From contig CAVZRA010000013.1 of NCBI GenBank assembly GCA_963777645.1, positions 86,514-150,513 of the forward strand: a stretch of 64,000 nt of DNA, written 5' to 3'. The notes beneath the pieces were generated by a model. It made no database searches. It was not told where the DNA came from and saw nothing but the letters and a program-made list of their open reading frames with translations. The position numbers and the translations under genes are program-made. The stretch is from an uncultured bacterium (GTDB lineage: Bacteria; Actinomycetota; Acidimicrobiia; Spongiisociales; UBA5794). Each line of letters starts with the position of its first letter. The first letter of the stretch is position 1. This document shows positions 11,328 through 64,000 of this stretch, one piece after another.

Positions 11328-14300
11328 CTATTCCTGGTAGCCCGGGTGACCGACCTTGGTGCCTTCACCACCCGCCATCGGCAGGTGAGGCATCGATCCC
11401 TCGAGGCCCCGCCACAGCGCATACATCTGGGCCGCAGGCTCGAGTGTGAGTATCTGCCCGGCAACGGCTCCCGTCCCCGGCTGCGCCGAGACAAGCGCAA
11501 GCGTTTCGTTCTCGAGGGTGGCCTGGAGCGACGGTGCCGAGTATTCGACCTTGCCGTTGATCGCCAGACGATGGGTCTCACCGTCGAAACGGCCTTCGAT
11601 GACGGAGGTGTCGCCATCGTTTGTGATCCAGAAGGCGTTGTCCTTCTCCGCCTCGAAGTCGGGACGATGCAGGTACAGCCTCGGCTTGTCGCGATACGGG
11701 TCGCCCGAAGTGGGGCATGCGGTGACACAGTTGCCGCACTCGTTGCAGAAGTCGGTGAGCACCGCAATCTGGAGCGACTGGTCCACACGGAACGGCCCCA
11801 TTTCCCCCACTGTCACCCCGCCGTCGCCAACCGCCAGTGCCGGTAGCTGTGCACGGAACGGCGACATCTGATATGTCATCAACGCCATGTTCGGGCACAC
11901 CCCGACACATAGGCTACAAATCGTGTCGCAGTCGAGACAGCGTGATGCCTCTGCCTGCGCTTCGGCATCGGTGAAGGTATGCAACGTCTCGTCGAAATTG
12001 TCTCTCACGTCGAGCGGTGTGTGCCGCACCGGAACCCTGTACTCACGATGCGCCCTGCGGGTCACCATGTCCGAGAGGCTCAGCTCGAGCGGCTTCCAGG
12101 TGGCGGGCATCGGCACCGGAATGCCCGAGGCAGCCTCGATGATGGCTGCGGCAACGGCCTTGCCGTCTGCGGCCGCCTTGACGATCGATGCGGGACCGGC
12201 GGCAGCCACGTCGCCACCGGCGTATACGCCGGGGATGGTCGTCTGGTGGGTCTTCGGGTCGACGACGATGTAACCACGCGAGGTCAGTTCCGGCTCGTCG
12301 TCGCCAAAGAAGTCGAGCAGCGAGTACTGGCTGATCGCCAGAATCAGCGTGTCCAGCTCGATTTCGAACTCCGAGTCCGGCACGTCGAACGGGATCTTCC
12401 TGCCGGAAGCATCACGGTCCCCCCGGTACTCGGTCTTGGTGCAGACGAGGCCCTTGAGCTTGCCGTCTTCAACGTGGATCGAACGCGGGTTGGCAAGCTC
12501 GACGAACTTGACACCCTCGGCAAGCGACTCGTGGATCTCCTCGCGGTCGGCAGGCATCTGGTCGATGCTCCGCCGGTAGATGAGAGAGGTCTCTGTTGCC
12601 CCGACCCGCCATGATGAGCGAACACAGTCCATGGCGGTGTCGCCGGCACCGACAACACCGACGCGCGGACCGACGGGCATAGGATGCCCCTCGCGAACGC
12701 TGCGCAGGAACGCCAGAGCATCGATGACACCTTCGGCGTCCTCGCCCTCAAAGCCGAGATGCTTGGGGAGCTGAGCGCCAACCGCGACGAAGGTGTAGTT
12801 GTAGCCCTGGTCGCGAAGATCGGTCAGCGTGAAGTCACGGCCTGCCTTCATGTTGTACTTGATCTCGACCCCGAGGTCATCGAGCGCCTGCAGGTCCTGG
12901 TCGATCTTCGACTGCGGGATCCGATACTCCGGGATGGCGCCACCGACCATGCCACCCGCATAGGGGTAGGCCTCGAAGATGGTGACGGACAGCCCGGCTT
13001 CCCCCAACTCACGACCGGCCGCAATGCCGGCAGGGCCGGCGCCGATGATCGCCACCTTGCCGGGCATCCCCGACGCTTTCGTGACACCGCTCGAGGTCTC
13101 GTGCTCCATGATGAAGCGCTTCATCTCACGGATTGCAAGCGGCTCGTCGAGGTGGGTTCGAATACAGGTGGTTTCGCAGAGGTGGTCGCAGACCCGGCCG
13201 AGAATGGACCCGAGCGGGTTATCGGCACGCACGATCGACACGGCCTTGTCGAAATCGCCCTCACGGACTGCACGCATGTATGCGGGAACATCCTGATCGA
13301 TCGGGCATTCATCGACACAGGGTGCCTGGATACAGTCGAATAGGTGCAGCTCGCGTTCGGTCTTGGAGCGATCGGTACGGAACGAGCCCTTCAGATAGCG
13401 CCAGTCAGTGCGCACGAAGCTCGCATACTGGCGGAGGTTGACCCGCTTCAGAGCGTTGAGAGTCAGCCTGACCAGATCTGCGGCTCGCTCTTCGTCGAAG
13501 CCATGGTCCCGAGCCCACGTCTCGATTGCGGCCAGCGGCGATTGCCCGTCGCTCACCGAGCGCAGCGCCTCACCCAGGGAGACTACCTGGTCTGTGGTCA
13601 GGTTCAGCCCGCTCTCGGTGAGGGCGCCGTAGGTGAGGATGCCTGCGAAGTCGGCCATGTTCTCCTGCTGCAGCGCCGTGTTTGCAATGAACTCGGCGAG
13701 ATTTGCGGCACCGGCCTTGTCGAGAGCGTTGTTCAACTCTTCGATGTACTGCGGAAGACGCAGGTAGCCGCCGGTCTTGAGCAGATCGGAGCAGACCGTG
13801 ATCGTCTTCATCCCCGCTCGCAACAGATCGGAGACATTGAACGCGTCGGCGCCACCCGCATAGGACAACAGCAGATCACCTTTGAACTCCTCGGAGATCC
13901 GCAGCGCCAGGTTGCTGGTGACGGCATGCAGCGCCCGACCCGACAGGTACATCATCTCGTCGGACTCGAACACGGTGCGGTGATTCTCCACCTCGAGCGT
14001 GTTGGTCAGCTTGAGCCCGAAAGTGAGCCCGTTGGTCCTGGCGACCCGCCGCAGATTATGGAACATCGGGACCGCATCGACGTACTTGAGGTCGTGGCCA
14101 AATGCCTCGTCGGGAACGGGGATGTCGGTAAAGCCGAGGTCGTCGTTGATGATGCCACGCACCCGGTCGGCACCGAGCAGGGTCGGGTTGCACTTCACCG
14201 ACGTGTGGATCTTCCGCTCATTCAACAGGTAGAGGACTATCTGCTCGATCTCGTCCGGTGGGCATCCGTGCATCGTCGAAAGGGTGATGGTGTCGGACAC

Positions 14301-14906
14301 GGTGTCGGGGATGGCGATGTCCCGGATCTCCGGGTACCTGCGGGCAACGATGTCGACGTACTGCTGCTTGTATGCCGAAGCATCGGCCATGGCGTCGAAG
14401 TACCACTGCACGTTCGGCTTCTTGATGCCCTCGAGGTTGTAGCCGACAGACATGTTGAAGATCATCCCGGGAAAGTCACCCGGGAAGCCCAGCTTCTTGT
14501 GCAGCGCATGAATCAGCACCCAGGCGCGCAGATACTCGTCGAATGATTCGAAAATCTTGAGCTCCTGCGACCACTCGACGTTGTATCCCTCGTCTTCCAG
14601 ATCGATGCACGGCTTGTTGACGTCGAGCTCATCCAGGGTCTGGACGGTCTTCAGCTCGAGGAACCGGGCGCCGACGAGCCAGGACACAATGATGTTCTGC
14701 GCCATCTGGGTGTGCGGGCCTGCGGCGACACCAAACGGTGTCTCCAGGAGCTTGCCGTACTTCTCAAAACGGAAACGATCGTCTACCGACGGTACGAAGA
14801 ACGAAGACCGGGGAATACCAAAGATCGAGTCCTTTTCCTCGAGCTCGGTGAACACCCAGTCTGTGAGCTGTTCCATCGTGATGGGATGGAAGCGGTCCGA
14901 CATCAT
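11328..14906 (-). CDS. ygfK: YgfK-like Fe-S/flavin oxidoreductase (DHOD-like barrel + GltD-like FAD/NAD(P) domains + 2x[4Fe-4S])
   Basis: ATG 14906 has a GGAG RBS and lies 7 nt after the ssnA stop. The N-terminus 'FGVAAGPHTQMAQNIIVSWLVGARFLELKTVQ' is collinear with E. coli YgfK as I recall it. Dinucleotide folds are 'VAIIGAGPAGIAAG' and 'VGVVGAGDTAMDC'. Ferredoxin motifs are 'CLDCDTICSLCVGVCP' and 'CNECGNCVTACP'. Confidence 0.85.
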   Translation of the reverse strand: MMSDRFHPITMEQLTDWVFTELEEKDSIFGIPRSSFFVPSVDDRFRFEKYGKLLETPFGVAAGPHTQMAQNIIVSWLVGARFLELKTVQTLDELDVNKPCIDLEDEGYNVEWSQELKIFESFDEYLRAWVLIHALHKKLGFPGDFPGMIFNMSVGYNLEGIKKPNVQWYFDAMADASAYKQQYVDIVARRYPEIRDIAIPDTVSDTITLSTMHGCPPDEIEQIVLYLLNERKIHTSVKCNPTLLGADRVRGIINDDLGFTDIPVPDEAFGHDLKYVDAVPMFHNLRRVARTNGLTFGLKLTNTLEVENHRTVFESDEMMYLSGRALHAVTSNLALRISEEFKGDLLLSYAGGADAFNVSDLLRAGMKTITVCSDLLKTGGYLRLPQYIEELNNALDKAGAANLAEFIANTALQQENMADFAGILTYGALTESGLNLTTDQVVSLGEALRSVSDGQSPLAAIETWARDHGFDEERAADLVRLTLNALKRVNLRQYASFVRTDWRYLKGSFRTDRSKTERELHLFDCIQAPCVDECPIDQDVPAYMRAVREGDFDKAVSIVRADNPLGSILGRVCDHLCETTCIRTHLDEPLAIREMKRFIMEHETSSGVTKASGMPGKVAIIGAGPAGIAAGRELGEAGLSVTIFEAYPYAGGMVGGAIPEYRIPQSKIDQDLQALDDLGVEIKYNMKAGRDFTLTDLRDQGYNYTFVAVGAQLPKHLGFEGEDAEGVIDALAFLRSVREGHPMPVGPRVGVVGAGDTAMDCVRSSWRVGATETSLIYRRSIDQMPADREEIHESLAEGVKFVELANPRSIHVEDGKLKGLVCTKTEYRGDRDASGRKIPFDVPDSEFEIELDTLILAISQYSLLDFFGDDEPELTSRGYIVVDPKTHQTTIPGVYAGGDVAAAGPASIVKAAADGKAVAAAIIEAASGIPVPMPATWKPLELSLSDMVTRRAHREYRVPVRHTPLDVRDNFDETLHTFTDAEAQAEASRCLDCDTICSLCVGVCPNMALMTYQMSPFRAQLPALAVGDGGVTVGEMGPFRVDQSLQIAVLTDFCNECGNCVTACPTSGDPYRDKPRLYLHRPDFEAEKDNAFWITNDGDTSVIEGRFDGETHRLAINGKVEYSAPSLQATLENETLALVSAQPGTGAVAGQILTLEPAAQMYALWRGLEGSMPHLPMAGGEGTKVGHPGYQE

Positions 14907-14913
14907 CACCCTC

Positions 14914-15936
14914 CTAGAGCTTGGCGTGCAGTCTCTCGGCTTGTTCTCTTGCCTTGGCGCGGACCTCGTCCGCATCTACGCGAGTTGGCTTTCCATCCTT
15001 GAAGACGACTTCGCCGTCGACCTTGACCTCGACGGGGTGGACCCCGGGAGTAAACGCCAGGTGCCACGGATCCATCGGGTCGTACGACCAGGTGACCTCG
15101 TCATTGCGAGCTTCGGGCACGATGTTCCAGCCCTCTTCGAGCCATGACCACGCCGGGTCGGGCCCGACGGTGACGTCAACGGAACGCTGCATCACGTAGG
15201 CGAGACGGAACGACTCGATCATGTTGGCGCCGATCCCGTCGGTCCCCAAAGCAACCGGATTGCTGAACCGGGCGGGGTCTGCGTAGCCAACACCATTGTT
15301 GAGGTTCGATCGTGGATTGTGCAGGATCGTCCCCTTCAGGTTGTGATCGGTCGGTAAGTGAACACAGTGGCTGAGCAGCCAATTATCCTCGGTGAGCCCT
15401 TCGAGACGTTGCGGAGCATCGACATCGCCGATTCCCTCGCAAACATGGATGTGGACTCCGACACCCAGATCTCTGGCAAGACCGGCAGCGGCCTCGAGCG
15501 ATTCGTCGGTGCAGGTGAACGCTGCATGGACCCCGACCAGAGCCTTGTTGCCTTCTTTGACGAAGCGCTCATTCTCCGCCAGCCCCCGCCTGGCTCCATC
15601 TGCACCGTGCCTGTCGGTGATCCCGTATGCGGTGAGAACACGTACCCCGACCTCTTCGCACGCCTCCTTGATGACCGACAGCGAGCCCTCGATGGCGCTC
15701 GGCGTCTCGTTGTGGTCGACGATGGCGGTGGTCCCCGCTTCGAGTGCCTCCAGTGCCCCGAGCCGGGCCGAAGCACGCAGCATGTCGAGGTCGAGCGCCA
15801 CATCGAGTCGCCACCAAACCTGCTCCAGGATTTCCTGGAAGTTGGTTGCCACCTTCGGGGGCGCAGGCATGCCCCGCGCCAGTTCCGAGTAGAGATGGTG
15901 ATGGGCACATACGAGACCGGGAGTTGTTGCCGTCAT
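14914..15936 (-). CDS. ssnA: SsnA-like amidohydrolase (N-terminally short form)
   Basis: 'GLVCAHHHLYS...WWRLDVALD...AIVDHNETP...HIHVCEG' is collinear with E. coli SsnA from about residue 55 onward. The ORF starts right at the HxH metal motif. Confidence 0.8.
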   Translation of the reverse strand: MTATTPGLVCAHHHLYSELARGMPAPPKVATNFQEILEQVWWRLDVALDLDMLRASARLGALEALEAGTTAIVDHNETPSAIEGSLSVIKEACEEVGVRVLTAYGITDRHGADGARRGLAENERFVKEGNKALVGVHAAFTCTDESLEAAAGLARDLGVGVHIHVCEGIGDVDAPQRLEGLTEDNWLLSHCVHLPTDHNLKGTILHNPRSNLNNGVGYADPARFSNPVALGTDGIGANMIESFRLAYVMQRSVDVTVGPDPAWSWLEEGWNIVPEARNDEVTWSYDPMDPWHLAFTPGVHPVEVKVDGEVVFKDGKPTRVDADEVRAKAREQAERLHAKL

Positions 15937-15956: not shown

Positions 15957-18539
15957 TCAGATTTTCGACTGGATATCAACAGGCTCGTGGACACCCATCG
16001 GTACCTGTGTTCGCCACTTCCCGTCTACTTCGTGAAGCGCGGCTGCGACCGCACCCGCGGTCGGTACCAAGCCTATCTCACCGACGCCCTTGATTCCGTA
16101 AGGGGATCTCGGTTGCGGAACCTCGACGATAATCGACTCGACATCGGGCATGTCCTTGGCCCGAAGAATGCCCAAGCTGCGCAACGTCTTCTTGATAGGC
16201 CGCGCGTCGTCATCAGTGGGAAACTCCTCAGTCAGGGCATATCCCAAACCCATGTGCACGGCACCTTCGATCTGACCCTGCACCAGGGTGGGATTGACAG
16301 CTTTGCCAACGTCGTGCGCGGCAAGGACCTTCTCTATCTTGCCGGTTTTCGGGTCAGCGATGACCATCTGCGCAGCATATCCGAATGCGGAATGGACAAT
16401 CGGATTCTCGACACCGTCCTCGAGCGCATTGGTCCAATCTACGCGGTATTCGCCCTGGTAGTCGATGCCCGGCTGCTGACCGTTCTCATTGGCCACCCGG
16501 CAAGCGTCTTTTACGCCTCCCGCCGCCATCAGAGTGCCCCTTGACCCGGTCGTCTGCCCGGCTCCGAGTTCGCGGTTCGTGTCAGAGGTGATCCTGATCC
16601 GAGCCGGGTCTACCCCTAGCTCCTCTGCGGCCACCTGGATCGCCACTGTATGCACACCCTGCCCCATCTCAGTCCAGCAGTGTTGTACTTCTACGGTACC
16701 GTCCTCTTCGAACCGAACAACAGCTCGGGAGATCTCCACGAAGCCGTTGCCGAGCCCTGAATTCTTGATCCCTAGCCCGATCCCGACGGCCTTCCCACTG
16801 GCCTTCGCGGCTTCGTAGGCAGGCTTGAGAGCTTCGAGGCACTCGGTGGCTCCTCGACAGCCATCGTCCATGATCTGACCGGGTCCCCAGACGACGCCCG
16901 GCGTGACTACATTGCGAAACCGCATCTCCCAGCCGCTGATCCCGACAGCATGTGCGAGTCGATCGATTGTCCCCTCCATCGCAAACTGTGCCTGGTTTGC
17001 ACCAAATCCTCTGAAGGCACCCCCGACCGGGTTGTTGGTCCGCACAGCCACAGCCTCTACGTCGACATTGTCGACCACGTACGGTCCGCACATGTGCCCG
17101 GCGGCACGTTCCAGCACCTTCATCCCGACCGAGGCATACGGCCCAGAGTCACCGATCATCCGGGACCGTAGCGCCGTCAGCTTGCCCAGTTCGTCGCATC
17201 CGGCCCACACCTCGATCTCAATAGGGTGTCGCTTGTCGTGAACCCTGAAGGATTCTTCACGAGATAGCGTGCATTTGACCGGTCGCTGGAGCAGGTATGC
17301 CGCAAGTGCAGTCTGACCCTGATTTGACATGTCTTCTTTGCCACCGAAAGCGCCCCCATTCGATACCAATTCGACTACGACTTGCAGTGGCTCAATCCCG
17401 AGTAGAGAAGCAATCTGATCACGATCGTCCCATATCCCTTGCCCGCCGGAGTAGACATGAAGTCGTCCCGTCTTGTCTGGCATGGCGAGGGTGGATTCCG
17501 GCTCGAGAAACGCATGTTCCACTCGCTGCGTTTTGAAGACCTCGTGGAGGGTGTGTGTCGAAAAAGCCAGCGCCGCATCAACATCGCCACGCTGGTACTT
17601 CGACGTTGAGAGCACATTGCCGTCCAGGCCCCAAACCGCATCCTCATCGGACGCCAGCGCGGTCCTGACATCGGCAAACGGCACGAGCACGTTGTACTCG
17701 ACGTCGATGAGCTCGGTGGCGGCCCTAGCCTGACGACGCGTCTCCGCCACAACGATTGCCAGGACATCTCCGTAGTATGACGTCCTCCCGCCCTCGGGAA
17801 TGAACACGGGCCAGTCTTTGTGGATCATCCCCACGCGGAGCTTTCCCGGGACGTCCGCGGCAGTGAACACTGCTACAACACCATCGGCAGCTTCGGCACG
17901 GCCGGTATCGATTCGTAGCACATCGGCGCGAGCGTGTTCGGTGAGTCTCAAGGCACCGTGCAGGAGGCCAGCAGGCCGGAGATCGTCGACATAGCCGCGA
18001 TCACCCAGGGCGAGGTCCATGGCTTCGTATTTGACGCCGTTCTTGCCAACCGCGCCCGGCAAACTCAGCGGCGCTACTGATCCGGAGGCCAACATCTCAA
18101 CAGCATCCAAGATCTTGGTATACCCGGTGCACCGACAGAGGTGAGCCCCCAAACGACCGGCCGCAATCTCCGACGTTACGCCTGCTGGGCCCTTCTGGTC
18201 GAATAGTGCCTTTGTTCGCACCATGATGCCGGGTGTACAGAATCCACACTGGAGGGCGCCGGTGACCGCAAAGGCTGACGCCAACCGGTCCCGCTCGGCA
18301 GGATCAAATCCTTCAAGAGTGGTCACCTCAGCGTCAGCAGCCTTTTCCATGCTGACAAGACAGCTCTGGATGGCTTTACCATTGAGCAGGACCGTGCATG
18401 CCCCACATTGGCCAGAGGGCGAGCAACCGTCCTTGGGTGAAGTCACGTCGAGCTCGTCGCGCAATGCCGAAAGCAGGTGGGGGTGGTCCGCGGCGACAGC
18501 AACCGACGCACCGTTTACGGTCATGCTCACTTTTGGCAT
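15957..18539 (-). CDS. Fused [2Fe-2S]x2 / molybdopterin-binding hydroxylase (XdhD / selenium-dependent XDH / Mop-like), no FAD domain
   Basis: 'CSPSGQCGACTV' and 'CGFCTPG...CRCTGY' are followed by an MoCo domain ('GGAFGGKED', 'FRGFGANQ', 'PYGIKGVGE'). ATG 18539 lies 6 nt after GGGAGG. Confidence 0.85.
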   Translation of the reverse strand: MPKVSMTVNGASVAVAADHPHLLSALRDELDVTSPKDGCSPSGQCGACTVLLNGKAIQSCLVSMEKAADAEVTTLEGFDPAERDRLASAFAVTGALQCGFCTPGIMVRTKALFDQKGPAGVTSEIAAGRLGAHLCRCTGYTKILDAVEMLASGSVAPLSLPGAVGKNGVKYEAMDLALGDRGYVDDLRPAGLLHGALRLTEHARADVLRIDTGRAEAADGVVAVFTAADVPGKLRVGMIHKDWPVFIPEGGRTSYYGDVLAIVVAETRRQARAATELIDVEYNVLVPFADVRTALASDEDAVWGLDGNVLSTSKYQRGDVDAALAFSTHTLHEVFKTQRVEHAFLEPESTLAMPDKTGRLHVYSGGQGIWDDRDQIASLLGIEPLQVVVELVSNGGAFGGKEDMSNQGQTALAAYLLQRPVKCTLSREESFRVHDKRHPIEIEVWAGCDELGKLTALRSRMIGDSGPYASVGMKVLERAAGHMCGPYVVDNVDVEAVAVRTNNPVGGAFRGFGANQAQFAMEGTIDRLAHAVGISGWEMRFRNVVTPGVVWGPGQIMDDGCRGATECLEALKPAYEAAKASGKAVGIGLGIKNSGLGNGFVEISRAVVRFEEDGTVEVQHCWTEMGQGVHTVAIQVAAEELGVDPARIRITSDTNRELGAGQTTGSRGTLMAAGGVKDACRVANENGQQPGIDYQGEYRVDWTNALEDGVENPIVHSAFGYAAQMVIADPKTGKIEKVLAAHDVGKAVNPTLVQGQIEGAVHMGLGYALTEEFPTDDDARPIKKTLRSLGILRAKDMPDVESIIVEVPQPRSPYGIKGVGEIGLVPTAGAVAAALHEVDGKWRTQVPMGVHEPVDIQSKI

Positions 18540-18560
18540 TGATACCTCCCAGCCAAAGAA

Positions 18561-18577
18561 TATTGATCTGCTCAATG
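18561..18577. promoter_or_regulatory. Operator-like palindrome site A: TATTGA-TCTGC-TCAATG
   Basis: 11 of 12 matches to TATTGA-N5-TCAATA. It lies 22 nt upstream of the xdhD-like start. Confidence 0.5.
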
Positions 18578-18683: not shown

Positions 18684-18700
18684 TATTGATCATATCAATA
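18684..18700. promoter_or_regulatory. Operator-like palindrome site B: TATTGA-TCATA-TCAATA (perfect)
   Basis: Perfect 6-5-6 inverted repeat 38 nt upstream of the folD ATG. Confidence 0.55.
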
Positions 18701-18737
18701 CAGCAGTGATGTGGACCACGACGAAAGGGAGCCAAGA

Positions 18738-19604
18738 ATGGCAGCTGAGATCCTCTCCGGTCGCGACGTTGCAGCCGTTGTGAAGGAGGAGGTTGCCACC
18801 CGGGTGGCGGCGCTGAACCAACAGGGCAAGTCCGTCGGCTTAGCCACCGTTCTAGTGGGCGATGACCCGGCGTCAAAGATATACGTGCGCAACAAGCATC
18901 GAGCGGCGAAGCAGGTCGGCATGTTGTCGTTTGACTACACATTGCCCAGCGGTACCACCCAAGAGGCAGTGGAATCGCTGGTGGCACAGTTGAACGCAGA
19001 CGAGAAGATCGATGGAATGATCGTGCAACTCCCCCTGCCCGACCACCTCGACGGCCGTAGGGCGGTTCAGGCGGTTGCGCCAGCCAAGGATGCCGACGGA
19101 CTCCACCCACACAACCTCGGACTGCTCGTGCTCGATGAGCCAGGGCCGCAACCGGCAACACCGAGCGGGATCATGCGGATCCTCGACCACTATGCCATCA
19201 CAACTGCCGGCAAACGGGCCGTGGTCGTCGGCCGATCTTTCCTCGTCGGTCGCCCCATCGCCATCATGCTCGCCAGGAAAGGTGTGGATGCAACGGTGAC
19301 ACAGGCCCATTCCAGGACGCCCGAGTTGGACTCACTTCTCCGCACTGCCGACATCCTGGTGGTCGCGGCGGGCCGACCGGGCCTCGTCAACGCCCAAGAC
19401 GTAAAGCCGGGAGCGGTCGTCATTGACGTCGGCACCAATCGAACCGACGACGGATTGGTTGGCGATGTCGACTTTGCCACGGTAGCGGAGGTGGCCGGTG
19501 CAATCACACCAGTTCCCGGTGGCGTCGGCCCCATGACCATCGCCTCCCTCCTCGCAAACACGGTTGCCGCTGCCGAGCGGTCGAACGAAGGGCGCCACGT
19601 GTGA
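18738..19604 (+). CDS. folD: Bifunctional 5,10-methylene-THF dehydrogenase / methenyl-THF cyclohydrolase
   Basis: 'ATVLVGDDPASKIYVRNKHRAAKQVGM', 'DGMIVQLPLP' and 'PGGVGPMT'. ATG 18738 has a GGGAG RBS. Confidence 0.9.
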   Translation: MAAEILSGRDVAAVVKEEVATRVAALNQQGKSVGLATVLVGDDPASKIYVRNKHRAAKQVGMLSFDYTLPSGTTQEAVESLVAQLNADEKIDGMIVQLPLPDHLDGRRAVQAVAPAKDADGLHPHNLGLLVLDEPGPQPATPSGIMRILDHYAITTAGKRAVVVGRSFLVGRPIAIMLARKGVDATVTQAHSRTPELDSLLRTADILVVAAGRPGLVNAQDVKPGAVVIDVGTNRTDDGLVGDVDFATVAEVAGAITPVPGGVGPMTIASLLANTVAAAERSNEGRHV

Positions 19605-20944: not shown

Positions 20945-21000
20945 CAACGAATCGGGTACGCCCACGATCGGCAAGAATGCGACCAGCAGCGGAGGAACAA

Positions 21001-21375: not shown

Positions 21376-21418
21376 CCCGGCCCCACCACCTGCGACAACC
21401 GTCCTCTTGAGCTGTGCC

Positions 21419-25644: not shown

Positions 25645-25661
25645 TATTGACTGTTTCAATA
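25645..25661. promoter_or_regulatory. Operator-like palindrome site C: TATTGA-CTGTT-TCAATA (perfect; flanks G...C)
   Basis: Perfect inverted repeat 11 nt upstream of the FAD-subunit start, in the divergent region shared with the FNT gene. Confidence 0.55.
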
Positions 25662-25753: not shown

Positions 25754-25770
25754 TATAGTTTCTATCAATA
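25754..25770. promoter_or_regulatory. Operator-like site D: TATAGT-TTCTA-TCAATA
   Basis: 10 of 12 matches with a perfect right half. It lies just upstream of the RBS of the FNT gene. Confidence 0.35.
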
Positions 25771-47242: not shown

Positions 47243-47258
47243 CGGAGGGAAAACAGCG

Positions 47259-53098: not shown

Positions 53099-53115
53099 TA
53101 TCGACTATACCAATA
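53099..53115. promoter_or_regulatory. Operator-like site K: TATCGA-CTATA-CCAATA
   Basis: 10 of 12 matches. It lies 6 nt upstream of the XRE-cupin ATG, which suggests a leaderless transcript or autoregulation. Confidence 0.4.
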
Positions 53116-55989: not shown

Positions 55990-55991
55990 GC

Positions 55992-56870
55992 CTACGCCTC
56001 CTTCTGCTTGCCGACGCGCTCACCGAGATCGACAAGCAGGCGGGCCACCAATCGCTCGATCATCTTCTTTCGATAATCTGCGCTGCCACGCACGTCGCTG
56101 ATCGGTGAGATCCCGGCTGCCGCCACCCGAGCGGCTTCCTTCGCAAGAGCCAAGTCCATCTTTGCCGAGCCGTTGATGACTTCCTCTGCCGCTGTCGCCC
56201 GTATTGGTGTTGGGGCCACAGCGCCCAGGCCGATCCGAGCGTGCAGACCTGCTGGTTCTTGCCAAAGCGCCACCGCGACACCAACAATCGCAAGGTCCAT
56301 CGCACGACGTGGGCTCAGCTTCGTGTAGGAAGCCACCGCACCGGGTGCCGGCCATGGCAGCCACAGTGCTTCAAGCATCTCGCCCCGATCGAGAACGGTC
56401 TTGCCAGGCCCTACGAAGAAGTCCTCTAGCAGGACGTTTCTACGACCGGCAGCAGATACGATGTGTACCTCGGCTTTGAGCACCAACAACGGGGCGACCG
56501 TATCCGCCGATGGCGAGGCGTTGCATATGTTGCCCCCGATGGTTGCCATGTTCCGTATCTGCGGGCCGGCAACCACAACCGCCCCCTCGGAAAGCACCGG
56601 GAACCGTTCTGCAATAACATCTGAAGCGAGTATGTCGACCAACCGCACCGCAGCCCCTATCCGCAACCCTTCGGGCTCCACAGCTATCTCACCAAGCTCG
56701 GCGACGCCGGTTATGTCCACCATCGTTATCTCGGACCCCGGCTGATCCCGGTACTTCAGAAGTAGATCGGTGCCGCCGGCTAAAAGGCGGGATTCGGTAT
56801 CACGATCGTCAATGATCGAAAGAAGATCTTCAAGCTGTGCTGGGCAAACGACTTCTCTGATCGAGGCCAT
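55992..56870 (-). CDS. FAD-binding medium subunit of Mo hydroxylase
   Basis: 'LLAGGTDLLLKY' and 'ATIGGNICNASPSAD'. The start is ATG 56870. Confidence 0.85.
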   Translation of the reverse strand: MASIREVVCPAQLEDLLSIIDDRDTESRLLAGGTDLLLKYRDQPGSEITMVDITGVAELGEIAVEPEGLRIGAAVRLVDILASDVIAERFPVLSEGAVVVAGPQIRNMATIGGNICNASPSADTVAPLLVLKAEVHIVSAAGRRNVLLEDFFVGPGKTVLDRGEMLEALWLPWPAPGAVASYTKLSPRRAMDLAIVGVAVALWQEPAGLHARIGLGAVAPTPIRATAAEEVINGSAKMDLALAKEAARVAAAGISPISDVRGSADYRKKMIERLVARLLVDLGERVGKQKEA

Positions 56871-56921
56871 GGGTTGCTCCCGACTTCGTGTCTCGGCTGC
56901 TAGCCGGCAGTCTACCGCGAA

Positions 56922-56938
56922 AATTGATTCCATCAATA
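56922..56938. promoter_or_regulatory. Operator-like site L: AATTGA-TTCCA-TCAATA
   Basis: 11 of 12 matches. It lies 52 nt upstream of the FAD-subunit start. Confidence 0.5.
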
Positions 56939-57034: not shown

Positions 57035-57051
57035 TATTTGCATGATCAATA
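57035..57051. promoter_or_regulatory. Operator-like site M: TATTTG-CATGA-TCAATA
   Basis: 10 of 12 matches. It is the second site in the 425-bp divergent region between the Mo-hydroxylase and BMP/ABC operons. Confidence 0.35.
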
Positions 57052-57295: not shown

Positions 57296-58426
57296 ATGCG
57301 TTCGAGATTGATCAAGATCCTCGCCTTAGTTGCCGTGTTGTCGTTGTTCACAACAGCATGCGGCGGCGACGATGCCACCCCGACCACGAAAGCAACAACA
57401 GAGACAACCGCAGCCGGGACAGAGACAACCGCAGCCGGGACAGAGACAACCGCAGCCGGGACAGAGACAACCGCAGCTGCAACGGCGGACGGCCCAACTG
57501 AGGTCAACATTGCTGTTGTATTCGCAGGTGTGAAGGAAGAGCCGTGGTATGCCACGATGCTTGAAACGCTAGAGCGCATCAAGGCCAATAGCCCTCACGG
57601 TATGACGGTGAACTACGACTGGTTCGAAAGCATCGCGTATGCAGATGGTGAGAGAGTGATCGGCGAACTAGCTGCTTCGGGCAAGTACGACATCATCCTG
57701 GGCCACAGCCTCTTCGGTGAGTCCATCGCCCCGCTCAAGGATCAGTATCCGGAAATCCTGTTTGCGTTCTCCGGTTCGGGTAATGACGGAATCAGCGGTG
57801 GCAATGCATACTGGATCGACGCATACACCCACGAAGCCGCATATCTGTGCGGAATCGTGGCAGGAATGATGACCAAGTCGAACGTGATCTCAGCCGTCGC
57901 AGCCTTCCCATTTCCAAACGTGAATCTGCCTTTGAATGCATACATCGCAGGTGCTGAGTCGGTGAATCCCGACGTCAAGGCGCAGGTCACCTACATTGAG
58001 AGTTGGTTCGACCCGACCAAAGCGAAGGAATCAGCAATCGCTCAGATCGCGGCCGGATCCGACATCATCTATGCCGAACGTCTCGGCGTCTTTGAGGCGG
58101 CCGCAGAGAACGAAGGTGTGTATGCCTTTGGCCATTGGGCCGATCAGGCGGCCCTTGCTCCAGATGTGGTACTCACCAGTTCGCTCGCCCGTTGGGACCC
58201 AGCAATGAATTATCTAATCGATGCCTGGTATTCCCACGTGACTGAGGGCACCCCCTACGACGGCCCGCCAGATCGAATTGTGTTCTTGATGGCTGACGGA
58301 GGCACCGACCTGGCCGCCATGAGCGACCTGATCCCCGCCGATGTGCAGGCCGCCGTCACGGAAGCCAGAGACAAGATACTGAGCGGTGAACTCGTTGTGC
58401 CGATGAACGAGGCCCCGATCGAGTAA
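57296..58426 (+). CDS. BMP/PnrA-family ABC substrate-binding lipoprotein
   Basis: AAGGAGACC RBS. The lipobox is 'LFTTACGG', followed by the 'TETTAAG' x3 linker. The closest paralog in the window is 26945-28075. Confidence 0.85.
   Translation: MRSRLIKILALVAVLSLFTTACGGDDATPTTKATTETTAAGTETTAAGTETTAAGTETTAAATADGPTEVNIAVVFAGVKEEPWYATMLETLERIKANSPHGMTVNYDWFESIAYADGERVIGELAASGKYDIILGHSLFGESIAPLKDQYPEILFAFSGSGNDGISGGNAYWIDAYTHEAAYLCGIVAGMMTKSNVISAVAAFPFPNVNLPLNAYIAGAESVNPDVKAQVTYIESWFDPTKAKESAIAQIAAGSDIIYAERLGVFEAAAENEGVYAFGHWADQAALAPDVVLTSSLARWDPAMNYLIDAWYSHVTEGTPYDGPPDRIVFLMADGGTDLAAMSDLIPADVQAAVTEARDKILSGELVVPMNEAPIE
57398..57477. repeat. 21-bp tandem repeat x3.8 (acagagacaaccgcagccggg)
   Basis: Units at 57398, 57419, 57440 and 57461 (partial). 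They encode the lipoprotein linker. Confidence 0.85.
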
Positions 58427-58438
58427 CCATATTCAATA

Positions 58439-58468
58439 GTGAGGCCGGTCCATATGGACCGGCCTCAC
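58439..58468. terminator. 30-nt perfect palindrome (GTGAGGCCGGTCCAT|ATGGACCGGCCTCAC) between the binding-protein and ATPase genes
   Basis: Potential stem of about 13 bp, lying 13 nt after the stop at 58426 and 12 nt before ATG 58480. There is no T-tract. It is likely an intra-operon attenuator or mRNA-stability hairpin. Confidence 0.45.
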
Positions 58469-58479
58469 GGCAATTCTGG

Positions 58480-60045
58480 ATGAGAAGCATGACAGTCTTT
58501 CAGGAACCGCCGCCTCCGTTGCTGAGTGTTGAGCACGTAACAAAGCTCTTCCCCGACGTCGTTGCTAACGACGATGTAACCCTCGACGTCCTAGCAGGCG
58601 AGGTGTTGTGCCTTCTGGGCGAGAATGGGGCAGGCAAGACCACGCTTGCCGACATGCTCTACGGTGTCTATTCCCCCGATGATGGCCAGCTTCTCTTTCG
58701 CGGCGAGCCGCTCCAGCTCAGGAATCCTAGGGAAGCCATTCAGTCGGGCATCGGGATGGTGCACCAACATTTTGAGTTGGTGACCCCCATGTCAGCCCTC
58801 GAGAATGTCGTCATCGGGACGGAAGACGCTCGCTGGGCAAACCTGCCGGCAGCTCGAAAGAAACTCGAGGACTTGTGCGAGCAGTACGAAATCCATATTG
58901 ACCTCGACACCGAGGTCGGGCTGCTTTCCGTCGGTGAGCAGCAGTGGGTCGAGATCCTCAAGGCTCTTTACACCGGCGTCGAGTTGCTGATTCTCGACGA
59001 GCCGACGGCAGTCCTGACCCCGCAAGGGGTGCAGCGCCTGTTCAAGTTCTTGCGCGAGATGAAGCTGAACGGAGTCGGAATCGTGCTGATCACCCACAAA
59101 CTGTGGGAGGTGATGGAGATCTCAGACCGTGTCGCGGTCCTCCGCAAGGGGAAGCTCGTCGACATCGTCAATACGACGGAAACCGACAGCGCGGGTCTGG
59201 CAAGGCTCATGGTGGGCCGCGATGTGGTGCTGCGAGTCGACAAGGAGCTGGCAAAGGCTGGCCCGGTGATACTCCAGGTAGACAACATTGCAGCTCCCGG
59301 CAGATCAGAACGCGGAGCCCTTGAAGACGTGACATTTGATCTCCGAGAGGGAGAAATCCTTGGCCTTGCCGGCGTCTCCGGGAATGGGCAGGCCGCGCTA
59401 TTCGATGTTCTGGTTGGAGTCAACCCACCAACCAGGGGGACGATCCGCATTGCTGGTGTCGATACAACGCACGCCTCACCGAAGAAGATCGCAAGCAAGG
59501 GGCTGTCTGGCGTCCCTAGCGATCGAATCCGCCAGGGCCTGATGATGGATTTCCGCGTTCAAGAGAACTTGATCCTCGGACGCCACCGGTCATCCGACTT
59601 CGAATCGAGAGGCATGATCAACGGCCGGGCGATGCGCGAGTTCGCCGCCACCGCCATCAAAGAGTTTGAGATCAAGACACCCTCGGGACAGCTCACAACC
59701 CGGTTGTTGTCGGGCGGCAATCTACAGAAGGTCATCCTGGCGCGGGAGTTGATGGGCAACCCTCCTCGGGTACTGGTCATCCATCAACCGACGCGGGGTC
59801 TCGATATCGGAGCCAGCGAGTATGTACGGCGGCGTTTGGTCGCTGAGCGTGACCGTGGCGCAGGCGTGCTGCTCATCTCTGATGATCTTGATGAGATCTT
59901 CAACCTCTCTGATCGTGTGATCGTCATCTTCGAAGGCGCAATCATCGGCCAGGTCGACCCCGCCGAAGCGAACTACGAAGAGATCGGACTTTTGATGGCT
60001 GGAATCAGCAAGCGCAACCTCGGCGAAGGGGGGTCAAGCTCGTGA
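58480..60045 (+). CDS. Two-domain ABC ATPase (nucleoside/sugar type), intact
   Basis: Two Walker A motifs ('GENGAGKTTL', 'GVSGNGQAAL'), signature motifs 'LSVGEQQ' and 'LSGGNLQK', and 'LILDEPT'. Confidence 0.85.
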   Translation: MRSMTVFQEPPPPLLSVEHVTKLFPDVVANDDVTLDVLAGEVLCLLGENGAGKTTLADMLYGVYSPDDGQLLFRGEPLQLRNPREAIQSGIGMVHQHFELVTPMSALENVVIGTEDARWANLPAARKKLEDLCEQYEIHIDLDTEVGLLSVGEQQWVEILKALYTGVELLILDEPTAVLTPQGVQRLFKFLREMKLNGVGIVLITHKLWEVMEISDRVAVLRKGKLVDIVNTTETDSAGLARLMVGRDVVLRVDKELAKAGPVILQVDNIAAPGRSERGALEDVTFDLREGEILGLAGVSGNGQAALFDVLVGVNPPTRGTIRIAGVDTTHASPKKIASKGLSGVPSDRIRQGLMMDFRVQENLILGRHRSSDFESRGMINGRAMREFAATAIKEFEIKTPSGQLTTRLLSGGNLQKVILARELMGNPPRVLVIHQPTRGLDIGASEYVRRRLVAERDRGAGVLLISDDLDEIFNLSDRVIVIFEGAIIGQVDPAEANYEEIGLLMAGISKRNLGEGGSSS

Positions 60046-61187
60046 CAACTCCACCGCCGTCGGACACGTCTACTGATCCGCAACCTGGCCACACTCCGAC
60101 CAGCCTTCTGCAGCCCGGAGCAAGGTGGCGTTTTGAGAAGCGTCTCCATGTCGGGTGGAAGAGCGAAGCCGTGACCCTCGTGCTCGCCATTCTGGTCGCG
60201 GTCGGAATCAGCAGCTTTCTAATAATGGCTGCGGGTACCGGTGTCTGGGACGCATACAAAGCCCTGATCCAGGGTGCGATTGGATCCCGCCGCTCCATTC
60301 TGGAGAGTCTGGTACAGGCCACACCGTTGATTCTCACCGGGCTAGCTGCCGCCGTCGCCTTCCGCGCCAAAATATGGAATATCGGCGGTGAGGGTCAATT
60401 CTTCGCAGGTGCAATGGGAGCCTGGTGGATCGCCGACGCCGTCGGGAATACCCTCCCCCGATTCTTGATGCTCCCGCTCATTGTCCTTTTTGGAGCAATC
60501 GCCGGCGCCTTCTGGGGCGGTATTGCCGGGTTCTTGCGGGCACGCTACGGCACCAATGAAATAATCGTGACCGTGATGATGAACTTCATCATCCTGTTGA
60601 TCCTCTCCTGGCTTCTCGGTGGACCGTGGCGGTCACCCGACACGTTCTACTTCCAGACCGAGAAAATGCCCGAATCATCCTGGCTGCCGAGGTTCCTTGC
60701 TGACAGCAGACTGCACTGGGGATTCGGTATTGCCATCATTGCTGCGATCGCCGTATACATCCTCATATGGAAGACGCCTCTCGGGTTCGAGATCCGCGGG
60801 CTCGGCATCAACGCAGTAGCGGCGCGATTCAAAGGCATCAGCGTCGCTAGGACAATCATCGTCGTGATGCTGATCAGCGGAGCCTTGGCCGGTATCGCCG
60901 GCGCAGGCGAGGTGGGCGGTATTCATCACCGCCTCCAACTCGACATCTCGATCGGCTACGGCTTCACCGGCATCATCATCGCCCTCATCGGCAGACTCCA
61001 TCCCGCCGGTGTGGTCGCTGCAGCAATCGCTTTTGGGGCCCTCATCAACGGCGCAACCTTCATGCAGATCACTACAGGAACCCCGTCGGCACTCGTCGAT
61101 GTCATCCAGGGGCTTGTGCTGATAACGGTGCTCATCGGGGCAGTCGTAGTTCGATACCGTCTCCGGAGGCTCAGCCGCGATGAATGA
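60042..61187 (+). CDS. ABC transporter permease
   Basis: 381 aa and multi-pass. GTGA overlap with the ATPase. Paralog of 41713-42852. Confidence 0.85.
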   Translation: MTTPPPSDTSTDPQPGHTPTSLLQPGARWRFEKRLHVGWKSEAVTLVLAILVAVGISSFLIMAAGTGVWDAYKALIQGAIGSRRSILESLVQATPLILTGLAAAVAFRAKIWNIGGEGQFFAGAMGAWWIADAVGNTLPRFLMLPLIVLFGAIAGAFWGGIAGFLRARYGTNEIIVTVMMNFIILLILSWLLGGPWRSPDTFYFQTEKMPESSWLPRFLADSRLHWGFGIAIIAAIAVYILIWKTPLGFEIRGLGINAVAARFKGISVARTIIVVMLISGALAGIAGAGEVGGIHHRLQLDISIGYGFTGIIIALIGRLHPAGVVAAAIAFGALINGATFMQITTGTPSALVDVIQGLVLITVLIGAVVVRYRLRRLSRDE

Positions 61188-62127
61188 CGTCTTTACTCAG
61201 GCTTTTGTGATCGGTGTTCTCGCCACCGCGATCCGAATCGCGACTCCGCTGATCTTCGGGGCGGTCGGCGAACTCGTCGCCGAGAGCTCGGGAATCCTCA
61301 ACTTGAGCATCGAGGGTACGATGACTGTCGGTGCTCTTGCCGGCTTCGCCGTCGCCGGTGGTACCGACTCACTATGGCTCGGCATCGCCGGAGCAGTATT
61401 TGCAGGCGGTTTGATGGGCATGCTCATGGCTTTCATGTCCGCAACCGTCAAGGTCGACCAGATAGTTGCGGGATTGGCGCTCAATCTGTTTGGTGGCGGG
61501 CTCAGCTTCTTCCTGTTTCGGACGATCTTCTCCGACACCGCGTCCTCTGAGATTCCGACGGTCGGCGTGTTCACGGTTCCCCACCTCCCCGGGCTATCCG
61601 ATATTCCTTGGGCCGGCGAGATCGTATTCTCGCAACAATGGCTGACCTATATCGCCTTTCTCAGCGTCCCTCTCGTCTGGCTGTTTCTGAACAAGACCCG
61701 GTATGGACTAGAGCTGCGCAGCGTCGGCCACAACCCGGAAGCCTGCGATATGCGCGGCATCAGCGTGCAGCAAAAGCAATACTTCGCCACTGTCTTCGGC
61801 GGCATGATGGCCGGATTGGGTGGCGGCTTCCTGACTCTTTCAACGACAGGCTTGTGGTTCCCTGAGCTGATATCCGGGCGAGGTTGGATCGCGTTGGCCA
61901 TCGTTATCTTTGGCAACTGGCGGGTAACGTGGATTCTCGCCGGGGCGGTCTTCTTTGGCTTCCTCGATGGGCTGCAGCTTTCCCTCCAGGCCGTCGGCTT
62001 CGATCTGCCCTATCAGCTGCTCTTAGCCCTCCCATTCGTGCTGACGATTGTGGCGCTGGTAGTCAACAGAAGCCGCTCGAATGTTCCACTCTCGCTGGCT
62101 ATCCCGTACCATCGCGGACAGAGGTAG
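61180..62127 (+). CDS. ABC transporter permease
   Basis: 315 aa and multi-pass. It overlaps the upstream permease by 8 nt. It is the intact counterpart of 42849-43803. Confidence 0.85.
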   Translation: MNDVFTQAFVIGVLATAIRIATPLIFGAVGELVAESSGILNLSIEGTMTVGALAGFAVAGGTDSLWLGIAGAVFAGGLMGMLMAFMSATVKVDQIVAGLALNLFGGGLSFFLFRTIFSDTASSEIPTVGVFTVPHLPGLSDIPWAGEIVFSQQWLTYIAFLSVPLVWLFLNKTRYGLELRSVGHNPEACDMRGISVQQKQYFATVFGGMMAGLGGGFLTLSTTGLWFPELISGRGWIALAIVIFGNWRVTWILAGAVFFGFLDGLQLSLQAVGFDLPYQLLLALPFVLTIVALVVNRSRSNVPLSLAIPYHRGQR

Positions 62128-62274
62128 CCGTGTACAGGTATCAGGGCGATAGTCGCCCGAACATGGCTGCCAAGTATGGTTGCATAGGCCGATGAACCCG
62201 TGGTCGACTCGATGACGCTGAGTTCATGAGGCACAAGGCCAACGACGCCATCTCGCCGGGGCAACCTCCGGTTG

Positions 62275-63171
62275 TCACACCTGGGCGCTCACCGCAATGA
62301 GGATCACCCCGAAGACGACCAATCCGGCTCCGGTTGCCATCCGCAACGTGACATGTTCGATGTTGTGCAGTAGCACCCACGACAGCCCGACGACACCAAG
62401 CGGTTGCGCTGCAATGATAGGACCGACTGCAGAAACGGCCCCTCCCTCGAGGGCCTTGAACAGAGCCAGCAGTGCAGCAGCAATGCTGATGCCTGCCGCC
62501 ACCAGCCAACCCCAGCCAGCTCCGACCTTTATCTGACGCCGCAAACCGGGGACCGAAGCAGCTGCAACGGCCAAAATGGACAACATGCTCAACACTGCTA
62601 CCAGGGCGCCAAAGGCAGGGTGCGCAGTGTGCTTGAGCCCTGACTTGCGAAACAGATCCGAGACGGCAAATCCCACTCCGGCCAGCACCGGCAGCGGCAG
62701 CGCAGACCACCGCATCGCAGCCGAACGCGGTGCTGCGATGACCCGAGCCTGATCACTGGAAGACGGAGTCAACAGGACCCAAATGCCGGCTACCACGGTA
62801 ACGGCTCCAAGCACCTGCATCGCGTTGACGGTTTCGGAAAGCACTACCACACCGCCGGTAACGGCTATCAGCGGATACGCCGCAGTCTGGATCGGAATCG
62901 CAACCGATGGTCCCAATCGGTCCACTGCACCCAGCATCGAAAACCGCCCGATACCGTCGCCGACTAGACCGGCTGCAACGAACAGCCAGAATGCGTTTGC
63001 CGTTACGTTTTCGGGAGGATCGAAGAGGACCACAACCCCGAGGATGAACGCGGCCACGCTCGACGACAACAACAACGCAGTTAGAGCGTTCGTGTGCTGC
63101 AGCCCACGTTTGGCAAGGACGCTTCCCGCAGCAAAGGAGGCGGCAGCTATCACAGCGAGGAGAATGACCAT
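62275..63171 (-). CDS. EamA/DMT-family transporter
   Basis: 298 aa with about 10 hydrophobic helices in two EamA-like halves. Confidence 0.75.
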   Translation of the reverse strand: MVILLAVIAAASFAAGSVLAKRGLQHTNALTALLLSSSVAAFILGVVVLFDPPENVTANAFWLFVAAGLVGDGIGRFSMLGAVDRLGPSVAIPIQTAAYPLIAVTGGVVVLSETVNAMQVLGAVTVVAGIWVLLTPSSSDQARVIAAPRSAAMRWSALPLPVLAGVGFAVSDLFRKSGLKHTAHPAFGALVAVLSMLSILAVAAASVPGLRRQIKVGAGWGWLVAAGISIAAALLALFKALEGGAVSAVGPIIAAQPLGVVGLSWVLLHNIEHVTLRMATGAGLVVFGVILIAVSAQV

Positions 63172-63240
63172 GTTCCCACCTCGCTCTCGTGATCGTCGTC
63201 AGACGATAACGCGGTCCTCTGCGAAACAGCCGACACCAGC

Positions 63241-64000
63241 CTAAAAGAGACCGACAACGTTTCCTTCTCGGTCGATATCGACGTTCATGAAGGCTGGCCT
63301 TGTTCCCAGCCCCGGCATCGTCCTCATGGTGCCGATGATCGGATATATGAAACCCGCACCTACCGAGGCTCGTACCTCGCGGACGGGCATAACGTATCCG
63401 CTCGGCGCTCCCTTCAAGTTGGGGTCGTGGCTGATGCTGAGGTGGGTCTTAGCCATGCAGATCGGTAGATACCCGAATCCATTCTTCTCATAGCTGGCGA
63501 TCTGCTGGGTTGCCGTGTCACTGAGTTCAATGCCGGACGCGCCGTATATCTCGGTGGCGATCGTATTGATCTTCTCCTCTATGCTCTGATTGAGCGGATA
63601 CAGGAATTCGAACCTGGATTCCTGCTCGCAAGCTTCGACAACTGCCTCAGCCAGATCAACGCAACCGCGTCCACCGCCACCCCAGGGATCGGCAGCGACG
63701 GAGGCAAACGCTCCGTTCTCCATTGCCATTCGCTTCACAAGCTCGACCTCAGCCGACGTATCGGTTTGGAAGGTATTGACCGCCACCACTACCGGTATCC
63801 CGAACTTCCTAGCGTTGGTGATATGGGCAATGAGATTGACCATTCCCGCTCGGAGCAAAGAGAGATTCTCCTCTGTATAGACCTTGTCCAACGGCCTGCC
63901 GGGGACAACCCTCGGTCCCCCTCCGTGGGTCTTGAGAGCACGAATCGTGGCGACGAGCACGATGCAATCAGGGGCAAGGCCCGAAACCCGGCACTTGATA
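63241..64000 (-). CDS. fhs: Formate--tetrahydrofolate ligase, C-terminal part (gene runs off the window)
   Basis: 'VATIRALKTHGG', 'PICMAKT' and 'GFIYPIIGTMRTMPGL' are typical of FTHFS. The reading frame stays open upstream of the tracked Met to position 64000. Confidence 0.9.
   Translation of the reverse strand, partial: IKCRVSGLAPDCIVLVATIRALKTHGGGPRVVPGRPLDKVYTEENLSLLRAGMVNLIAHITNARKFGIPVVVAVNTFQTDTSAEVELVKRMAMENGAFASVAADPWGGGGRGCVDLAEAVVEACEQESRFEFLYPLNQSIEEKINTIATEIYGASGIELSDTATQQIASYEKNGFGYLPICMAKTHLSISHDPNLKGAPSGYVMPVREVRASVGAGFIYPIIGTMRTMPGLGTRPAFMNVDIDREGNVVGLF

Follow-up and report, generated by a model that had tools for sequence, protein, structure and literature searches.

Our analysis of a 64,000-nucleotide stretch of contig CAVZRA010000013.1 from an uncultured Acidimicrobiia bacterium ("the window" below is this whole stretch) shows that a region of about 51 kb within it is a single gene-regulation unit, in which genes for purine-degrading enzymes stand together with genes for vitamin B12-type (corrinoid) demethylases. 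On balance, this island probably serves to import and break down N-methylated purine-type heterocycles, the methyl group going to tetrahydrofolate (THF); the substrate is inferred from gene content. The same pairing of genes is found in five phyla and points to an undescribed oxygen-free demethylation of purine-like compounds. A sequence-only reading of the window, made without database searches, had proposed a co-regulated purine and one-carbon (C1) island and listed its gene classes; Pfam and NCBIfam scans of the large open reading frames (ORFs) bore this list out, each class being present in the window where it had been placed (Table 1).

The operator that unites the island is a 17-bp palindrome, TATTGA-N5-TCAATA. 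Counted at no more than two mismatches it occurs 14 times in the window, whereas 200 dinucleotide shuffles gave 0.6 on average and never more than 4. The sites are confined to 18.5–57.1 kb and nearly all lie in promoter regions, and all 13 of the island's transcription units (11.3–62.1 kb) have an operator upstream. Four divergent promoters have two operators each, 104–123 bp apart, and single operators stand ahead of the genes for corrinoid protein 1, BMP2, the Rieske oxygenase, corrinoid protein 2 and the regulator. Because the operators are usually 5–80 nucleotides from the start codon, they would fit a repressor that overlaps the core promoter. The operator-like site just past the formate/nitrite (FNT) channel gene has no obvious target gene and may be a chance match. 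Operators are kept at the orthologous promoters in six other Acidimicrobiia genomes, and they are not conserved at the loci of other phyla described below.

The sole regulator gene in the island encodes an XRE-HTH plus cupin protein, whose real start is the ATG at 53093. This protein is the likely candidate repressor of the island, and the operator 5 nucleotides ahead of its ATG suggests that it is autoregulated. An identical 198-amino acid protein is present in public data (P0121), and orthologues occupy the same place after the operon for the second xanthine dehydrogenase (XDH) set in two other Acidimicrobiia genomes (L083 and L084; L numbers are our labels for related loci and contigs). The right end of the window falls within a NUDIX-fhs-eamA operon. 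A JGI metagenome contig that extends the window (L081, 1–2312; 99.97% identical to 60647–64000) has a perfect operator 6 nucleotides before the NUDIX ATG, about 1.5 kb past the window end, and Fhs and EamA are therefore also members of the regulon. The earlier statement that fhs shares the operator is correct as to the site, but this promoter lies outside the window. The NUDIX-Fhs pair recurs in GCA_027494075.1 (L083). Two further members were missing from the earlier list: the gene for a MetH activation-like protein, and a SerA-SerC-DUF1015 operon, whose arrangement and operators recur in other Acidimicrobiia (L009, L012). Co-regulation through a shared operator, as had been proposed, is strongly supported by the presence of a site before every transcription unit and its conservation in six genomes; the region is best regarded as one putative repressor-controlled regulon, with 13 transcription units inside the window and NUDIX-fhs-eamA shortly past its end.

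The two MtmB-like methyltransferases cover nearly the whole of profile PF05369 (E 1.3e-79 and 5.4e-67 for MtmB1 and MtmB2) and match the MtmB structures 1L2Q/1NTH (E 6e-55); no NCBIfam model matches them. Neither has an in-frame stop, and a methionine (in the motif GMGGMGS) aligns with the pyrrolysine (Pyl) at position 202 of Methanosarcina barkeri MtmB (1L2Q). They are 41% identical to one another, and the relatives of MtmB1 come mostly from Acidimicrobiia metagenome-assembled genomes. A B12-binding protein is encoded directly upstream of each, and with the pterin-binding, THF-linked methyltransferase (MT2) and the RACo activase these make up a three-component corrinoid system. The 226-amino acid product of the gene after MT2 has no Pfam match by itself; a profile of 14 homologues matches the Thermotoga maritima MetH activation-domain protein 1J6R (E 9e-13), and 10 of the 14 members have weak Met_synt_B12 matches. 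A gene for the accessory DUF1638 protein follows the corrinoid protein gene in 8 of 9 Spirochaetota loci.

The cassettes resemble MtqB/MtqC of Methanococcoides methylutens in the PF05369 fold, the lack of pyrrolysine and the paired corrinoid protein, traits from which the likeness is drawn. Unlike that system, whose acceptor is coenzyme M and whose context is methylamine methanogenesis, the island has a THF-linked acceptor side (MT2, MetVF, FolD and Fhs) and a context of purine catabolism. The MttB-superfamily quaternary-amine:THF systems known from anaerobes (MtgB, MtpB, MtcB and MtyB) share with it the scheme in which a substrate methyltransferase (MT1), a corrinoid protein, MT2 and an activase yield methyl-THF, but in the island MT1 is of the MtmB family and the neighbours are of purine rather than betaine type.

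The minus strand carries, from 18575 down to 11328, genes for an XdhD-like molybdenum/2Fe-2S protein, a short SsnA-like amidohydrolase and YgfK. XdhD, YgfK and SsnA stand at the start of the reductive uric acid (2,8-dioxopurine) pathway reported in 2025, as its first three enzymes; in it, urate is reduced to isoxanthine by XdhD and YgfK and SsnA jointly dearomatise and open the ring, the net demand of the pathway being a reduction by four electrons (bioRxiv 10.1101/2025.05.19.654654). As in the reductive urate clusters of E. coli, C. difficile and C. sporogenes, there is an operon of xdhD-like, ssnA-like and ygfK genes with yqeB, yqeC and a mocA/ygfJ-like gene nearby; the island differs in its shorter SsnA and longer YgfK, and in the setting of its urate operon, a regulon that also includes corrinoid methyltransferases and THF C1 enzymes, a combination not reported for the published clusters. 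YgfK is about 150–180 amino acids longer than its 1012-position model, and its true start is probably near 14900. The two best models for the SsnA-like protein are both SsnA (255 and 238 bits against cutoffs of 444 and 455); it is without the N- and C-terminal parts of the 441-amino acid model, and this 340-amino acid form is conserved, adjoining YgfK also in UBA4744. The XdhD-like protein scores only 205 on TIGR03313. Both yqeB and yqeC (1991–3522) encode proteins above the cutoffs (YqeB 260 against 220, YqeC 169 against 73); they are maturation genes for selenium-dependent molybdenum hydroxylases, have no operator and are separated from the island by cell-envelope genes. Together with the mocA/ygfJ-like cytidylyltransferase gene (minus strand) they occupy 1167–3522, 8 kb left of the island.

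Besides the XdhD-like protein (15957–18575) there are two more XDH-family hydroxylases, M1/S1/L1 (25634–22130) and M2/S2/L2 (56936–53203). The first large subunit, XDH-L1, retains the Glu802-equivalent (GARE) and the catalytic glutamate of GEPP; the arginine of the FRGFG motif was considered as the Arg880-equivalent and dropped, as its spacing matches Arg912. The two TRZ/ATZ-type amidohydrolases are 47% identical to each other.

The intact orthologue of the Rieske oxygenase has NdmB (E 2.6e-51) and NdmA (E 1.5e-49) as its top PDB matches, over residues 25–347; these are the methylxanthine N3- and N1-demethylases, respectively. The island thus resembles NdmABCDE of Pseudomonas putida CBB5 in having a full-length NdmB/NdmA-like enzyme near xanthine dehydrogenase-type enzymes, but it has a single Ndm-like gene, without NdmD or NdmC/E, a short-chain dehydrogenase/reductase (SDR) as the partner and oxygen-independent corrinoid cassettes alongside. 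All three BMP proteins have the PF02608 fold. The three binding proteins were earlier said to come with ABC transporters, which holds except for BMP1, as it lacks ABC genes of its own. AtzT, the best solved relative of BMP2, co-purifies with guanine, which it binds at about 110 nM. In comparison with guanine-bound AtzT, BMP2 keeps the aromatic sandwich and Ser-Phe and has Val, Cys and Glu in place of Glu165, Asn218 and Asn220; its pocket would suit a flat, purine-like ligand with fewer N-H groups. The earlier description of the BMP proteins as purine-nucleoside type needs adjusting, in that their best solved relative binds a purine base. The nucleoside reading ranks below the free-base one, as the window is without a nucleoside phosphorylase, hydrolase or ribokinase and the closest solved relative of BMP2 binds a base.

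The proposal that the island degrades purine-like compounds is supported by a YgfK above its equivalog cutoff, by the match of XdhD, YgfK and SsnA to the urate pathway and by the nearby yqeB and yqeC, and further by the likeness of the Rieske enzyme to NdmB/NdmA and of BMP2 to AtzT. An N-methyl heterocycle other than a purine is a very unlikely substrate; the candidates would be trigonelline and homarine (both N-methylpyridinium carboxylates), a pterin or a triazine-like compound, whose demethylated ring the XDH enzymes would hydroxylate. It is true that the known non-Pyl relatives act on quaternary nitrogen, that XDH-L2, the type most often linked to MtmB homologues, has no equivalent of the Glu802 typical of xanthine enzymes, and that the best solved relatives of BMP2 and amidohydrolase 2 come from the atrazine system; but the native ligand of AtzT is guanine, downstream nicotinate or picolinate genes are not present, and the island has YgfK, XdhD, SsnA, a PucD-like XDH and an NdmA/B-like oxygenase.

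Relatives of MtmB1 and MtmB2 turned up in 74 loci when one genome per species was scanned, and the counts below refer to the 60 of these that are non-redundant and at least 10 kb long, from Acidimicrobiia, Chloroflexota, Verrucomicrobiota, Spirochaetota and Bacillota. An XDH subunit, a TRZ/ATZ/SsnA-type amidohydrolase or a Bmp protein is encoded within 10 kb of the MtmB homologue in 55 of the 60, and on the same strand within 3 kb in 38; 38 also is the number that carry at least two of the three classes. XDH genes are present in 34 loci, the large subunits near MtmB homologues being mostly of the XDH-L2 type, and amidohydrolase genes lie near the homologues in 39, often directly adjacent. URO-D methyltransferases, GntR/UTRA regulators and CobW are also repeatedly encoded nearby; in Bacillota they are joined by PucR regulators, SsnA-like genes and a PydA/PreA-like reductase, and carbamoyltransferase genes recur in four Bacillota and Chloroflexota loci. 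The suggested action of non-Pyl MtmB homologues on methylated purine-like compounds gains independent comparative support from the XDH, amidohydrolase and BMP neighbours in five phyla, and from the PucR, SsnA, PydA-like and carbamoyltransferase neighbours in Bacillota and some Chloroflexota loci. In related loci, other methyltransferases are found beside XDH and amidohydrolase genes in a like arrangement (L004, 2891–6554; L084, 688–6126), namely an MttB-family and a URO-D gene, each with a corrinoid protein, and an S-methyl_trans gene.

The frequent amidohydrolases bear on another route, in which these enzymes would cleave exocyclic N-methylamino groups (N6-methyladenine, N2-methylguanine) and the MtmB homologues would demethylate the released methylamine without pyrrolysine; AtzB and AtzC, which release alkylamines from triazines, offer an analogy. 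Pyrrolysine is, however, regarded as necessary for methylamine activation, and methionine stands at its position here. The atrazine chlorohydrolase that is the best solved relative of amidohydrolase 2 would suit methylamine release, as would the 39 loci just mentioned and the methylamine activity of MtqB, but that activity is small and residual (PMC13044021) and the NdmA/B-like enzyme suggests methyl groups on ring nitrogens, so that we consider this route unlikely.

It also seems improbable that two unrelated modules, a generic one for choline-type quaternary amines and C1 units (the MtmB-like enzymes, MetVF, FolD, Fhs and SerA/SerC) and one for purines, share a global nitrogen/C1 regulator, with no methyl group derived from purines. 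MtqB is a precedent for the first module, SerA and SerC lie within the regulon, and some loci of MtmB2-type relatives are without XDH genes; against this, the operon-level neighbourhood of MtmB homologues and XDH, amidohydrolase or BMP genes is repeated in five phyla, which use different regulators (GntR, PucR), and the island transporters are of BMP rather than betaine/choline type. Each of these alternatives is less well supported than the methylpurine reading.

If the substrates are methylpurines, BMP-type binding proteins and ABC transporters would import purine-like (methylated) bases. Under anoxic conditions the non-Pyl MtmB homologues would shift the N-methyl group onto the corrinoid proteins and MT2 would hand it to THF, with RACo and the MetH activation-like protein keeping the cobalt active; under oxic conditions the NdmA/B-like Rieske enzyme would take the methyl group off instead. 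Methyl-THF would be oxidised to formate by MetVF, FolD and Fhs, the formate presumably leaving through the FNT channel. The ring would be deaminated by the TRZ/ATZ amidohydrolases, hydroxylated to urate by XDH-type enzymes, and reduced and opened by XdhD, YgfK and SsnA as in the 2,8-dioxopurine pathway, and the ammonia would be captured by GdhA; which way formate flows and what GdhA does are presumed. Oxidation of one methyl group to formate would give four electrons, which equals the demand of the reductive urate branch. More tentatively, the MtmB1/MtmB2 clade as a whole could be a cross-phylum group of corrinoid-dependent methylpurine (methylxanthine-type) N-demethylases, an oxygen-independent counterpart of Ndm in which oxidation of the THF-bound methyl group powers ring opening; we regard this as possible and stop short of calling it probable.

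Several points weigh against these proposals. MtqB, the sole characterised non-Pyl MtmB, acts on tetramethylammonium and choline, and the functions of the others were said in 2026 to have "remained elusive" (PMC13044021); a Pyl-free protein of the MtmB superfamily is induced on dichloromethane in 'Ca. Formimonas warabiya' (PMC9768040), a reminder of the functional diversity of the family. Among the window ORFs, Pfam and NCBIfam found no hyuA, ygeW/uacY, ygeY, ygeX or yqeA, in which the island differs from the published reductive urate clusters; these genes could lie elsewhere in the genome. There is no NdmD-type reductase in the window, the SDR being the conserved neighbour of the Rieske gene. 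For the serA-serC-DUF1015 operon, no part in purine or methyl catabolism suggests itself. The neighbourhood counts (55 of 60 and the rest) come without a random-locus control. Finally, several genes of the present sequence are frameshifted.

These frameshifts were analysed by comparison with the closest genome, Acidimicrobiia bacterium UBA5794, which is about 84–85% identical in DNA and syntenic over 33.5–45.8 kb. Relative to it there are at least 13 isolated coding single-base insertions between 34 and 46 kb, none in a homopolymer. They break the ABC ATPase gene, one permease gene, the SDR and Rieske genes and the N-terminus of MtmB1, and the RACo gene is split as well; the broken genes have intact orthologues in UBA5794 and UBA4744. 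Because the insertions are isolated single bases and the protein segments that flank the breaks are well conserved (mostly >80% identical), sequence error appears at least as likely a cause as gene decay.

Table 1. Genes, operators and single-base insertions of the island (positions in the window; aa, amino acids; nt, nucleotides)
Feature	Position	Strand	Basis and remarks
YgfK-type flavin/FeS reductase	11328–14975	-	TIGR03315 915.6 vs cutoff 835.3; Fer4_20, Pyr_redox_2
SsnA-like amidohydrolase, short, 340 aa	14914–15936	-	NF005540 255 vs cutoff 444
XdhD-like Mo hydroxylase, fused 2Fe-2S domain	15957–18575	-	TIGR03311 (Se-dependent XDH) 817.6 vs cutoff 830.45; GGKE motif
FolD	18711–19604	+	THF_DHG_CYH domains
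GdhA, glutamate dehydrogenase	19601–20944	+	ELFV_dehydrog domains
DUF1638 protein	21257–22057	+	PF07796; accessory, frequent neighbour of corrinoid proteins
XDH large subunit 1 (L1), PucD-like	22130–24415	-	TIGR03196 713 vs cutoff 784
XDH 2Fe-2S subunit 1 (S1)	24346–24822	-	PucE/XdhC models, E 1e-50
XDH FAD subunit 1 (M1)	24807–25634	-	FAD_binding_5, CO_deh_flav_C
FNT channel	25786–26655	+	PF01226, E 9e-79
BMP1 binding protein	26945–28195	-	PF02608; without own ABC genes
TRZ/ATZ-type amidohydrolase 1	28174–29661	-	Amidohydro_1; top NCBIfam match 8-oxoguanine deaminase, below cutoff
serA-like (ACT domain), serC, DUF1015 operon	29806–33290	+	SerC TIGR01364 451.5 vs cutoff 443.6; PF06245; serA-like protein below cutoff of PGDH model
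Corrinoid protein 1	33582–34295	+	B12-binding, B12-binding_2; start from UBA5794 orthologue
MtmB-like methyltransferase 1 (non-Pyl)	34416–35802	+	PF05369; 1-bp insertion at ~34451 shifts frame (vs L082)
Methyl-THF:corrinoid methyltransferase (MT2)	35838–36689	+	NF005719 292.3 vs cutoff 259
MetH activation-domain-like protein, 226 aa	36695–37375	+	Invariant C-terminal CxxCx5C motif
MetV and MetF, methylene-THF reductase	37406–38955	+	PF12225, PF02219
BMP2 binding protein	39041–40216	+	PF02608; top PDB match AtzT, E 4.6e-39
ABC ATPase (several frameshifts), two permeases	40233–43880	+	ABC_tran, BPD_transp_2
SDR oxidoreductase, frameshifted	43868–44621	+	adh_short_C2; intact 249-aa orthologues in L007, L084
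NdmA/NdmB-like Rieske monooxygenase	44691–45768	+	Frameshift at ~45335; intact orthologue with Rieske and VanA_C
TRZ/ATZ-type amidohydrolase 2	45809–47242	+	Family match; closest solved relative atrazine chlorohydrolase
Alpha/beta hydrolase	47097–48071	+	Abhydrolase_1 domain
Corrinoid protein 2	48197–48895	+	B12-binding domains
MtmB-like methyltransferase 2 (non-Pyl)	48899–50281	+	PF05369
RACo corrinoid reductive activase	50354–52424	+	One frameshift; domains over two ORFs; intact 684-aa orthologue in L084
XRE-HTH plus cupin regulator	52497–53093	-	HTH_3, Cupin_2; 198 aa
XDH-family set 2, FAD, 2Fe-2S and Mo subunits (M2, S2, L2)	53203–56936	-	Domains; Leu at Glu802 position of Mo subunit
BMP3, ABC ATPase, two permeases	57296–62127	+	Domain scans; BMP3 in Bmp family
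EamA transporter, C-terminal part of Fhs	62275–64000	-	Distal genes of NUDIX-fhs-eamA operon
Operator	18561–18577		1 mismatch; xdhD side, divergent promoter
Operator	18684–18700		Perfect; 10 nt before folD start
Operator	25645–25661		Perfect; 10 nt before XDH-M1 start
Operator	25754–25770		2 mismatches; 15 nt before FNT start
Operator-like site	26677–26693		2 mismatches; between convergent genes, 22 nt past FNT stop codon
Operator	29615–29631		2 mismatches; amidohydrolase 1 side
Operator	29719–29735		2 mismatches; serA side; orthologous sites in L009, L012
Operator	33515–33531		1 mismatch; ahead of corrinoid protein 1; conserved in L001, L007, L009, L011
Operator	38987–39003		1 mismatch; ahead of BMP2; conserved in L007
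Operator	44652–44668		2 mismatches; 22 nt before Rieske gene; conserved in L007, L008, L084
Operator	48098–48114		1 mismatch; ahead of corrinoid protein 2; conserved in L084
Operator	53099–53115		2 mismatches; 5 nt before regulator ATG
Operator	56922–56938		1 mismatch; XDH-M2 side
Operator	57035–57051		2 mismatches; BMP3 side
Single-base insertions	34451, 40664, 40741, 41187, 41249, 41349, 41529, 43647, 43987, 44119, 44127, 44239, 45335; also 51657–51922		Relative to UBA5794 or L082

A few other features of the window were seen. The GC content is 63–64% left of the island (1–12 kb) against 58–60% inside it (14–64 kb), and an S8 subtilase and an amidase with SLH domains are encoded at 3539–7425, in an actinobacterial genome. 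Between gdhA and the DUF1638 domain, 20945–21420 is a coding-like stretch (e.g. from an ATG at 21001), which could be a small gene or reflect a further frameshift. A perfect GC-rich hairpin (GGCCGGTCCATATGGACCGGCC) at 58445–58466, between the BMP3 and ABC ATPase genes, resembles an intra-operon attenuator; no riboswitch or other RNA family was found in the window at the Rfam gathering threshold.

Every component family of the island is already known. In the literature searched we found no link of MtmB homologues or corrinoid enzymes to xanthine dehydrogenase, methylxanthines or Acidimicrobiia, and three things are undescribed there: the coupling of Pyl-free MtmB to purine enzymes, its recurrence across phyla, and a single-operator regulon that joins the reductive urate and THF C1 branches. 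We know of no enzyme for the anaerobic N-demethylation of caffeine-type compounds. Labelled N-methyl carbon of caffeine does reach methane in anoxic sediment, and the enzyme was not identified there (2026 preprint). For the large orphan clade of Pyl-free MtmB proteins, a definite candidate substrate class emerges from the island and its counterparts in five phyla, and the compact regulon of the island, with one palindrome at 14 promoters, offers a ready route to the inducer. The reductive urate pathway would be extended into environmental Actinomycetota, where a link to C1 metabolism would balance its redox demand.

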